This document shows positions 56,218 through 58,830 of a DNA stretch of 64,000 nucleotides, piece after piece. Positions within the stretch are counted from its first letter, which is position 1. Each line of letters opens with the position of its first letter. A program made the translations under genes and the position numbers. Below the pieces are notes generated by a model. The model did no database searches, had not been told where the DNA came from, and saw nothing but the letters and a program-made list of their open reading frames with translations. The stretch lies in the NCBI RefSeq assembly GCF_055900595.2, contig NZ_CM148325.1; one strand, 5' to 3'.

Positions 56218-58830
56218 TCACACCGAACGCGATTCAGGAGGAACTGTTTGGTAAATAGCACCACCGGATCTTGGGGGCGCTGTGATTATTACAGTATTGC
56301 TATCACCGTCATTTTTGAATGTCACTTTACCAGTAGCATCAACGCCTACCCAGGAGGCCGAGCTTGAAAACGAATAATCAGCCGCCGTTTTTCCTGGTGC
56401 AAAGTTGTCATTATTCAACTGATAATACGCCCCGGTAAATCCCTGCGAAGGGAATGAAGCTGTCGGTAGGTTTGCACCATTCACTGACACTGTACCGGTC
56501 ATTGGTCTGGTTTCCGCGCTAATGAATTCTATCGTGGTACTCAGGCCCGCCTGATGAACACCATTCAATACGGGGATCAGCGTTGCGATACCCTCTCCGT
56601 CTCCTGTAACAGTAGCTTTGTAATCACCGTTGATATTTTGACTGTAATCAATTGCGCTAATTTTCATATAGGGCACGTTTGTACCTGATTGCACAAATTC
56701 CATCCCTTCAGAAACTTTGATCGGATTGCCTGATATATCGTGCAGAACAAGATGTAGCTCAGCACTATCGGTAAAGTCCCCTTTCAGTGATGACTGGTTG
56801 TTCTTAAGGATGGACTGCGAGGCGTCTGCTGGGACTGCCACTAGCGATATATCTACTGTTTGCATTCCACCTGCGCTTGTGACTGTGCTTACAGTGACGC
56901 TCCCCGTTATCGCTCCTTTCACGCTTGTTGTCGCGATTCCGTTTTGATCGGTCACTGCTGTTAATGACGTTAATGTGGTGGAGCCGCTTTTTAAGGCGAA
57001 GTACACAGTGAGACCTTCGATCAGGTTACCACTGCCATCCTCAACCGTTGCCTTTAAGGTACTTAAATCACTGTTGGTGGCGGCGATAGTCGACGGATCA
57101 GCGATAAAGCTAGCAACATGTGCGGTGCTTGGGTTGCCAGTAACCTTCACGGTTGTCTGTGTCTGTATTGTGACGCCGTTATGGAACGATGCAGTCACCG
57201 TATATGTACCGACTTTATTGCTGGTCAGAACGACTGGAGCCTGACCTGAAGAGTTGGTTCTCACTTTTCCGCCACTTAACGTCGCACCTTCTAGCGTTAC
57301 GCTAAAGTTGATGACCTGACCCTCCACTGGAGTGCCATTTGCAGAGGTTAGCGTTGCCGTCAGAGTAGCGCCTTTAGGAGCATTGACACCGATAAGCGGA
57401 CTGGACGTGAGTGTCAGTTTTTCATCAATAGCCTCCAGTTGTTTCTCAAGTGAAGCTCCATTCGCTAGGGATGCTTTTACAGTATACGAGCCGTTTCTTT
57501 CAGGCGTCATGGTGACCTCGGCTACTCCCTGCGTATTAGTAGAGACCGTATTCTGGCTGATGATCATTTGCGAGGATGGCGCTGCACTGAATGTCGCGGG
57601 TTGATGCGTCACCGGGTTGCCAAACTGGTCGTTAACGTGAGCTTTAACTGCTATGTCTTGTGCGACCATGACCTGACCTTCAGGTATCTCCTGACTGGTA
57701 ATCGTCGCAGAATTAACATCTACCTTGGCATTCAGTAATCGCGAGATGACTTCAGTAGGTTTATCTGCCAGAGAGGCTGAAACTGTTTTTAGTCCGACCT
57801 CGGTGCTTGTCACAAGAATTTCAGCGAAAACCTGATCATCCGTTTCAACGCTGGTGCTGCTTAGCGTGACGGAGGTTCCACGGAAATTAACTTTTATACC
57901 TTCTACTGGGTTGCCGTTTCCATCAGTCACTGTTGCCTGTAGCCTGGTCATTCCAATGTTATTGGCGATGAAATTGTCCTCGGTAACGTTAAGATTAACC
58001 TGCGCAGTGAGCGTATCCGCAGTAAAGTTCACCACCAACTGCTCACTCTTACCGCCAACCATCGATGCTGTCACGGTATGAGCGCCTGCTTTTGTACCTT
58101 TCAGCGTGACTTTCGCTTTGCCATCGGCATCAGTAACCGCTTTGTCGCCATCGCTCAGCGTGAAGTTCGCCTTCACATCTTCCGGTAGAGTAAATGTTAC
58201 CTCAGTGTTGGCTATCGCATTGCCCTCTGTATCAGCGACGGTGCTGTTAGTGTCGTGAGATCGTTATTGTCGGCAATCACCGGATCCTTCGAGGCTGCCA
58301 GCGTGATTTCAGCATTCGTGACGTTCGGCACATAGTTCACTGTTTGTTGCATCGAATCGCCATTTTCGAGGGTTGCCGTCACGGGAGTTCTTCAGGCTGA
58401 AATCTTCATCCACGCCCAGCGTGATTCTTGCGGTACCGAAGCGGCTTAACCAGTCTGTCATTACCCCTGAAGCCTGAGAAGAGGCCCATCCACGTGCTAT
58501 GTTTGCCGCTTGCTCGCTGTTCATATCTTCGGCGAGCAGAGATCCAATTAGCTGTGAAGTACTGGCTATCTGTTGCTCAAGGTTGCCACTGCTGTTACCC
58601 GGCGGCGGGGTTAAATTTTTTTCACTAACTTGTGCCTGGACATCCAGTTCATCACCCGGGCGGACATTACGAACAAACGTACGAAACTGGTTGAGTTTGC
58701 GTAACAGGGGGGTATCTATAATTTGTTGCACAGGACAAATATATCTGGCTTCTGTACAGAGTCTTAAATTTTGACCATAAATAAAACCGTCCCTGTCAAG
58801 CATGCATAGTTTATCAAGTAGGTCTCCCAC
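56218..58830 (-). pseudogene. yeeJ: Inverse-autotransporter adhesin yeeJ remnant with large internal deletions
   Basis: N-terminal piece (58309-58830) ends in the beta-domain lead-in ...WLSRFGTARITLGVDEDFSLKNS; 652-aa piece (56218-58176) is Big/Ig-like repeats only; beta-barrel and most repeats absent; ~2.6 kb total. Confidence 0.8.

Follow-up and report, generated by a model that had tools for sequence, protein, structure and literature searches.

The locus between shiA and fyuA

The locus was analysed in a window of 64,000 nucleotides (contig NZ_CM148325.1, assembly GCF_055900595.2), in which the E. coli chromosome is reversed with respect to the K-12 orientation. The gene order is shiA, a 5' fragment of yeeL, IS1, a 3' fragment of yeeL, a yeeJ-derived region, the right arm of the HPI, fyuA, ybtE and ybtT, the last of which reaches the window end. 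The equivalent interval of K-12 is asnT-yeeJ-yeeL-shiA, and yeeJ there comprises 7,020 nt. The genome of TUM1886 is 100% identical over the region apart from 569 bp beside IS1. The features which frame the yeeJ-derived DNA are the following:

53199-54515, minus strand: shiA
54830..55058, plus strand: 5' fragment of yeeL, cut short by a 569-bp deletion that abuts the left inverted repeat of IS1
55059..55826, plus strand: IS1, 768 bp, inserted in yeeL
55827..56090, plus strand: 3' fragment of yeeL (glycosyltransferase family 9)
58705..59707, minus strand: HPI right arm, AT-rich, retained in the common E. coli HPI (by comparison with the ICE-type HPI of SEV4)
59708..61729, minus strand: fyuA, last gene of the HPI yersiniabactin core (from the list of open reading frames; so annotated in TUM1886, which is 100% identical)

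The splitting of yeeL by IS1, recognized already in the first-pass annotation, is real, and it is accompanied by an additional loss beside the element. The 569 bp lacking in comparison with TUM1886 consist of 560 bp of yeeL and one 9-bp target duplication. TUM1886 possesses both copies of the 9-bp target (GTCTACCGT); in the window the right-hand copy is present and the left one is gone, such that the left end of IS1 reads ...CAAACTTG followed directly by GGTGATGCTGCC. The missing DNA stops exactly at the intact terminal repeat of IS1 and one target copy has been lost, which is the signature of an IS1-mediated adjacent deletion. This deletion has affected the neighbour gene, not yeeJ.

The DNA derived from yeeJ extends from 56261 to 58704 on the minus strand, and fyuA is the marker of this scar on the island side. 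BLASTN comparison with K-12 yeeJ and MAFFT alignments of the individual blocks resolve three colinear pieces, which together keep about 35% of the 7,020-nt K-12 gene at 92-95% identity:

58704-58383, minus strand: block A, yeeJ nt 220-550, 93.6% identity, with a 9-nt in-frame deletion
58381-~57908, minus strand: block B, yeeJ nt 4244-~4718, codon 1415 onward, 95.4% identity
~57937-56261, minus strand: block C, yeeJ nt ~5001-6677, to codon ~2226, 92.7% identity

Colinearity with yeeJ, followed by yeeL and shiA in syntenic position, identifies the region as the yeeJ orthologue by descent. Block A represents codons 74-184; it begins in the last part of the LysM region, passes through the linker and breaks off ~60 positions into the β-barrel domain IAT_beta (PF11924; 279 positions). 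Profile positions 3-64 of 279 are matched in block A versus 2-279 in K-12 YeeJ, and a complete barrel is absent. A 652-aa open frame (56218-58176) consists of block C and the 3' part of block B past a GTG at 58176; its stop codon, a TGA at 56218-56220, is located inside former intergenic DNA. According to Pfam the frame carries five Big_1/Invasin_D3 stretches and an Invasin_D4 match, i.e., the tandem Ig-like passenger of a type Ve inverse autotransporter; K-12 YeeJ has 13 Big_1 stretches.

The region lacks a signal peptide and its own start and promoter: codons 1-73 and the upstream DNA are replaced by the HPI right arm. Neither does a single frame lead from the barrel to the C-terminal lectin-like domain, as a large internal deletion is out of frame, one further nucleotide is missing near 58243, and the last 114 codons are gone together with the stop codon. 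The remnant is spread over three reading frames, and PGAP marks the locus as pseudogenes in identical genomes. From this anatomy, the region appears to be a non-functional yeeJ scar.

In comparison with K-12 yeeJ (b1978), the gene of a type Ve inverse autotransporter adhesin (Martinez-Gil et al. 2017, PMC5595812), the remnant shares part of the LysM region and linker, the lead-in of the β-domain, Big_1, Invasin_D3 and Invasin_D4 domains, and the position beside yeeL and shiA. It differs in being a pseudogene of ~35% of the original length, without promoter, signal peptide, barrel or C-terminal lectin-like domain.

The first-pass annotation had placed a yeeJ remnant at 56218-58830. A remnant it is, with three blocks colinear with K-12, but the stretch 58705-58830 belongs to the 5' part of an ICE/HPI right-arm ORF. 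The proposed N-terminal piece indeed ends in the β-domain lead-in (peptide WLSRFGTARITLGVDEDFSLKNS at the end of block A), though the true N-terminus of 73 codons is missing. Similarly, a run of Big/Ig repeats is present, though the extreme C-terminus (114 codons with the lectin-like domain and the stop) has been deleted. That the barrel and most of the repeats are missing is borne out by the Pfam matches, with 60 of 279 IAT_beta positions and 5 of 13 Big_1 stretches left.

Joints, small lesions and the right arm of the island

The endpoints of the deletions with respect to K-12 yeeJ, which the first-pass annotation had suggested to map, were determined by BLASTN and MAFFT. Four joints, designated J0 to J3, and two further small lesions were located besides the 9-nt deletion in block A:

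58705/58704, minus strand: J0, codon 118 of an ICE ORF joined in frame to yeeJ codon 74 (L74), from the alignment of ICE, window and K-12
58383/58381, minus strand: J1, 3,693-bp deletion of K-12 yeeJ nt 551-4243 (residues ~185-1414), out of frame
~58240-58243, minus strand: 1-nt deletion in block B, the second frame shift
57908..57918, minus strand: J2, 282-bp (94-codon) in-frame loss of exactly one Ig-like repeat
56261-56237, minus strand: J3, a loss of 453 bp that comprises ~114 C-terminal codons (C-type lectin-like domain) with the stop codon and ~110 intergenic bp
58848..58851, minus strand: frameshift in a run of A, A4 here versus A5 in 1008S13 and FEA3 (three-way alignment), lineage-specific

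At J0 the island-side sequence ...GATACCCCCCTG meets TTACGCAAACTC... of yeeJ with a microhomology of 1 nt (G). The cost to yeeJ is the promoter and the first 73 codons, with which the signal peptide and about half of the LysM region, on its N-terminal side, have gone. J1, which took out the greater part of the β-barrel and some ten Ig-like domains, possesses no microhomology, only one ambiguous base. J0 and J1, at which microhomology amounts to 0-1 nt, are illegitimate joints. J2, on the other hand, is bounded by direct repeats of 11-12 bp (AACGGCAACCC(G)), and both flanks in K-12 share the repeat. The joint at J3 holds ~19 nt of unclear origin. No IS element is present at any of the yeeJ joints. 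Repeat-mediated deletion, whose signatures the first-pass annotation had proposed to look for, must be rejected as a general mechanism: a direct repeat exists only at J2 (282 bp) and not at J0, J1 or J3. The frame break suspected near 58180-58310 is real and is explained by J1, out of frame at 58382, together with the 1-nt deletion at ~58243.

The 9 nt missing in frame from block A are still present in FEA3, thus this deletion belongs to a later, post-founder decay. Wherever the whole query was covered (34 among the matches listed), yeeJ alleles of the intact type span at least ~730 bp more than the remnant, and among the matches listed they align to it in two or three pieces. All intact alleles seen being longer, J2 and J3 are deletions relative to them. 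In principle, some of the differences from K-12, e.g., the repeat number at J2, could be allelic rather than lesions.

A 308-aa ORF of the ICE-type HPI (WP_000039790.1 in SEV4), for which no Pfam family was found, begins in the right arm with an ATG at 59057, and its first 118 codons are retained there. To the right of fyuA the ICE-type HPI of SEV4 is 98.6-99% identical to the window, and homology ends at 58699-58705. Past this joint SEV4 has the remaining part of the 308-aa ORF and then genes for an AlpA-family regulator (Pfam Phage_AlpA, E = 1e-26), DUF2857, TraR, a VirB-type type IV secretion system (T4SS), a coupling protein and MobC. This AlpA/T4SS/MobC module right of fyuA is absent from the window, where yeeJ directly follows the arm. 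The ICE-type HPI (ECOR31-type, ICEEc1; SEV4) thus shares with the window the fyuA-proximal arm up to J0, including the 118 ORF codons, and differs by its continuation with AlpA, DUF2857, TraR, the VirB-type T4SS and MobC and by ~207 bp more in the AT-rich arm.

A pattern search of the window for the 17-bp att core of the asn-tRNA (CCAGTCAGAGGAGCCAA) yielded no site between fyuA and yeeJ. The core is confined to three tRNA-Asn genes at 45.8, 48.2 and 50.1 kb; consequently, attR has been lost. The island in the window accordingly has the properties of the common truncated HPI: the attR repeat is lost, the ICE module is absent, and the deletion reaches into the backbone (DNA upstream of yeeJ and codons 1-73). 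Schubert et al. 2009 (PLoS Pathog, PMC2606025) reported a unique deletion at the fyuA border, by which the direct repeat is removed and which reaches into the backbone; they found it in every ECOR HPI but that of ECOR31. The agreement with this common E. coli HPI is extensive: the fyuA-side repeat is missing, the ECOR31-type conjugative module of 35 kb is absent, the backbone is eaten into, and the scar is found in most HPI-positive strains. There is no substantive difference; the left (int/asnT) end lies outside the window. J0 is thus very probably the deletion which immobilised the HPI, the 5' end of yeeJ being collateral damage.

In the first-pass annotation the decay of yeeJ was linked to the nearby HPI, with acquisition of the island or later recombination as possible causes. 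A link exists, as the 5' break of yeeJ coincides with the right end of the HPI-truncating deletion; integration of the HPI as such is not the cause. In SEV4 the ICE region runs on to ldtA/cobT, the K-12 neighbourhood of asnV, where no tRNA is annotated, and in DA33133, also of the ICE type, the HPI lies ~40 kb from an asnT-side yeeJ annotated as full length. In both ICE-type genomes checked the island is therefore located elsewhere on the chromosome, and in DA33133 yeeJ is full length; this argues against damage by integration itself.

J0 created a chimeric ORF of 249-252 aa, which consists of 118 aa of the ICE protein, YeeJ residues 74-184 and a 24-aa tail. It is uninterrupted in 1008S13 (249 aa) and FEA3 (759-nt CDS, 252 aa) and is annotated as a protein there. 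In the window it is split by the loss of one A (58851-58848), and it is annotated as 'frameshifted' in TUM1886. The ICE part is possibly HTH-like, and the ORF presumably keeps the upstream region of the ICE gene. That the fusion would be expressed as a neo-protein with some function, or that the diverged remnant would mark an unsampled founder lineage of Escherichia, are speculations from sequence which we consider very unlikely.

Distribution among complete E. coli genomes

The population sample comprised 5,426 complete E. coli genomes, of which 2,268 are HPI-positive by the presence of the fyuA end and the right arm. A 601-bp probe spanning both J0 and J1 was matched contiguously in 2,055 genomes (~38% of the sample and 91% of the HPI-positive genomes), a 191-bp probe for J1 alone in 2,057 of the 5,426. 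The shared joints J0/J1 are conserved at 97-100% identity in these ~2,055 genomes, which derive from diverse hosts and backgrounds. The body of the remnant is found at 99% identity or above in 2,024 of the 5,426 genomes, and in a 95-99% class of 74 genomes.

ICE-specific DNA immediately to the right of J0, i.e., the untruncated ICE-type HPI, is present in ~176 of the 5,426 genomes. According to combined place counts ~200 genomes possess both an HPI arm and a yeeJ barrel, which matches the ICE-type count. A chimeric probe composed of the HPI arm and the K-12 barrel retrieved not a single genome (0) in which the arm lies within ~3 kb of a yeeJ barrel. Likewise, no genome was retrieved in the pre-deletion state, i.e., with an ICE-type HPI at asnT beside an intact yeeJ. 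UMN026 and ED1a reportedly carry an intact yeeJ whose surroundings are altered.

Identity of the remnant body to yeeJ of the intact type is 84-94% among the matches listed, and the remnant diverges by 6-8% from every intact yeeJ allele sampled. Two genomes were considered as possible carriers of an intact allele. FEA3, the divergent genome inspected, was rejected; it is 98.9% identical to the window across the locus, has the same J0-J3 and represents this scar in a slightly older form. EcPF15, in which a 98-bp stretch is 99% identical, was rejected as an ancestral-type intact allele, since its blocks are 92.8%, 94.5% and 83.6% identical, i.e., no closer than those of K-12. 1008S13 has lost most of the HPI via IS1 and has kept the scar beside an int remnant and the tRNA-Asn at the asnT position.

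Individual genomes display further sublineage decay, e.g., insertions of IS3, ISKpn26 and IS1, and extra deletions.

A probable founder deletion and its spread with the island

These observations very probably reflect one founder deletion, in which the ICE was stripped of its transfer module and attR, and yeeJ of its 5' end; decay of the remaining pseudogene and spread with the HPI would have followed. An ICE-type HPI would have integrated at asnT, directly upstream of yeeJ. A single illegitimate deletion, J0, from codon 118 of the ICE ORF to codon 74 of yeeJ, would then have immobilised the island and killed yeeJ at one stroke; lost with it would have been the AlpA-type regulator, the type IV secretion and MobC genes, attR, the promoter of yeeJ, the signal peptide and about the N-terminal half of the LysM region. 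The dead yeeJ may subsequently have shed, by neutral decay, 3.7 kb, one Ig repeat by slippage or recombination between repeats, one nucleotide and 453 bp at the 3' end. All of these events, J0-J3 and the 1-nt loss, would precede the spread of the island. Thereafter the island and its flank would have passed between E. coli lineages and phylogroups by homologous recombination of large fragments, consistent with the co-transfer of HPI flanks reported by Schubert et al. 2009 (PMC2606025). Such movement of the island with its flank would explain why the scar is identical in ~2,055 genomes. The 9-nt deletion, the frameshift in the A-run, the IS1 in yeeL and the 569-bp deletion adjacent to it would represent lineage-specific decay in the present genome. 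We infer both the single founder event and the position of J0 at the beginning of the series.

The order of events is where a different history has to be weighed. The yeeJ of the founder may already have been internally deleted (J1, J2, J3 and the 1-nt loss) before the island arrived, with J0 the only HPI-related lesion. The four joints are completely linked and hence compatible with either order of J0 and J1-J3; in many genomes without HPI, moreover, yeeJ has been disrupted independently (15 of 96; PMC5595812), and it is fragmented in EcPF15. However, with J1 in 2,057 genomes and J0 plus J1 in 2,055, J1 essentially never occurs without J0, and no HPI-free carrier of J1-J3 was found among the matches listed. 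A yeeJ pseudogene which predates the island is thus rather unlikely, yet it deserves consideration. Recurrence is a different matter. Martinez-Gil et al. (PMC5595812) invoked a high recombination potential at asnT, and in such an asnT/yeeJ hotspot the same deletions might have arisen repeatedly and independently; J2 in particular, located between direct repeats, could recur. That J0 and J1, with 0-1 nt of microhomology, are identical in ~2,055 genomes is a strong argument against this; in addition, the trees of the flanks track the HPI tree and not the backbone (Schubert 2009, PMC2606025). Independent origins are highly improbable.

Two more explanations dispute the very existence of lesions. 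The region might be a different, naturally short invasin-like gene, considering the open 652-aa frame with Big_1, Invasin_D3 and Invasin_D4 domains and the 249-aa ORF which is annotated as a protein in some genomes. Such a gene would have to do without a signal peptide, with ~60 of 279 barrel positions and in three frames, at a place where PGAP annotates pseudogenes. Its DNA is colinear with yeeJ and syntenic between the HPI arm and yeeL; the alignments refute this idea, and the first-pass annotation was right in considering the locus a yeeJ remnant. Repetitive adhesin genes are known to misassemble, as exemplified by upaH (PMC5595812), and a collapsed repetitive Ig-domain region could mimic deletions. 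But more than 2,000 genomes, each closed independently, show this structure, and J0, J1 and J3 are not located between repeats, which leaves an assembly artefact with next to no credibility.

One founder deletion with subsequent decay and spread therefore remains the preferred reading. Its main elements are already known: the HPI border deletion was described in 2009 and the truncated yeeJ near asnT/HPI in 2017. Martinez-Gil et al. 2017 (PMC5595812) found an intact yeeJ in 40% of genomes, called CFT073 yeeJ-negative and ascribed truncated yeeJ to the asnT/HPI hotspot. In Fig. 4 of a 2023 paper on avian STEC (PMC10562709) homology to part of yeeJ is depicted for pseudogenes bordering the HPI of RM9088, a genome which also appeared among the sequence-search matches of the present analysis. 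The scar is of little importance as a discovery; it is real but ordinary. Added here are endpoints at nucleotide level, a catalogue of the internal lesions, a chimeric ORF fused in frame and counts in 5,426 genomes.

Of practical use, the joints 58705/58704 and 58383/58381 are handy markers to distinguish the common truncated HPI from the ICE-type HPI. With respect to annotation, the features 'Ig-like domain-containing' and 'inverse autotransporter beta domain-containing' next to fyuA constitute one hitch-hiking pseudogene scar, carried by ~38% of complete genomes. Strains with the common HPI are therefore without the YeeJ biofilm adhesin.

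The chimeric ORF and its yeeJ allele

The right arm of an ICE-type HPI is fused in frame to yeeJ, and the resulting chimeric ORF of 249-252 aa consists of codons 1-118 of the ICE ORF, YeeJ residues 74-184 and a tail which is out of frame.

Copies of the chimeric ORF
Window 58309-59057, minus strand: frameshifted
L003 (strain 1008S13) 12058-12807: intact
L006 (FEA3) 5844-6602: intact

In the other carriers the ORF is unbroken and annotated as protein WP_000039778.1 or WP_024009125.1; the frameshift of the window copy is caused by an A5-to-A4 change at 58851-58848. The yeeJ remnant (window 56100-58400) diverges by 6-8%, and by up to 16%, from every sampled intact yeeJ, and the neighboring yeeL and shiA flanks differ by just 2-3.4% from K-12. 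None of the intact yeeJ alleles sampled proved closely related to that of the founder.

Attachment sites and the right arm

Three tRNA-Asn genes of the window each carry the exact 17-bp HPI att core.

tRNA-Asn genes
45823-45898
48231-48306, beside yeeO
50055-50130, beside yeeO

According to the identical annotation of strain TUM1886, at minimum the pair on either side of yeeO (48.2 and 50.1 kb) is unoccupied in the window. In strain SEV4 the asn-tRNA region houses the ICE-type HPI, adjoining ldtA/cobT. From the MobC/ArdC end of this island to ldtA, SEV4 (NZ_CP154596.1, 1866000-1914000) carries IS debris and defense-type genes, i.e., a retron Eco8 effector and reverse transcriptase, an ABC-three-component system and a restriction endonuclease. 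This block may be a tandem island which shares the att site with the ICE-type HPI.

The AT-rich arm downstream of fyuA is about 207 bp longer in the ICE-type HPI (L004, the ICE-type locus, 10791-10997 vs. window ~59411-59423). Because the extra segment lies between two direct repeats that match imperfectly, AAAAAAA(C)AACCCC and AAAAAAACCACCCC, its loss from the common HPI by slippage deletion is suggested.

IS1, yeeL and the persistence of the scar

Compared with TUM1886, elsewhere 100% identical, the window lacks 569 bp at 55058|55059, comprising 560 bp of yeeL and one target copy, GTCTACCGT. The endpoint coincides exactly with the left inverted repeat of IS1; a loss flush with IS1 in this way is the signature of IS1-mediated adjacent deletion. 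IS1 occupies the same yeeL site in 165 complete genomes. Since the best 12 matches among these all retain the 560 bp (12/12), the deletion may be confined to the strain of the window.

In the river-water strain 1008S13 (NZ_CP147053.1, 10275-12807) IS1 has deleted nearly the whole HPI. Besides IS1 itself and the yeeJ scar, the locus retains the final ~400 bp of the right arm and, beside the tRNA-Asn at the asnT position, a truncated integrase. Thus, 1008S13 shows that the scar persists after HPI loss, i.e., it outlasts the island.
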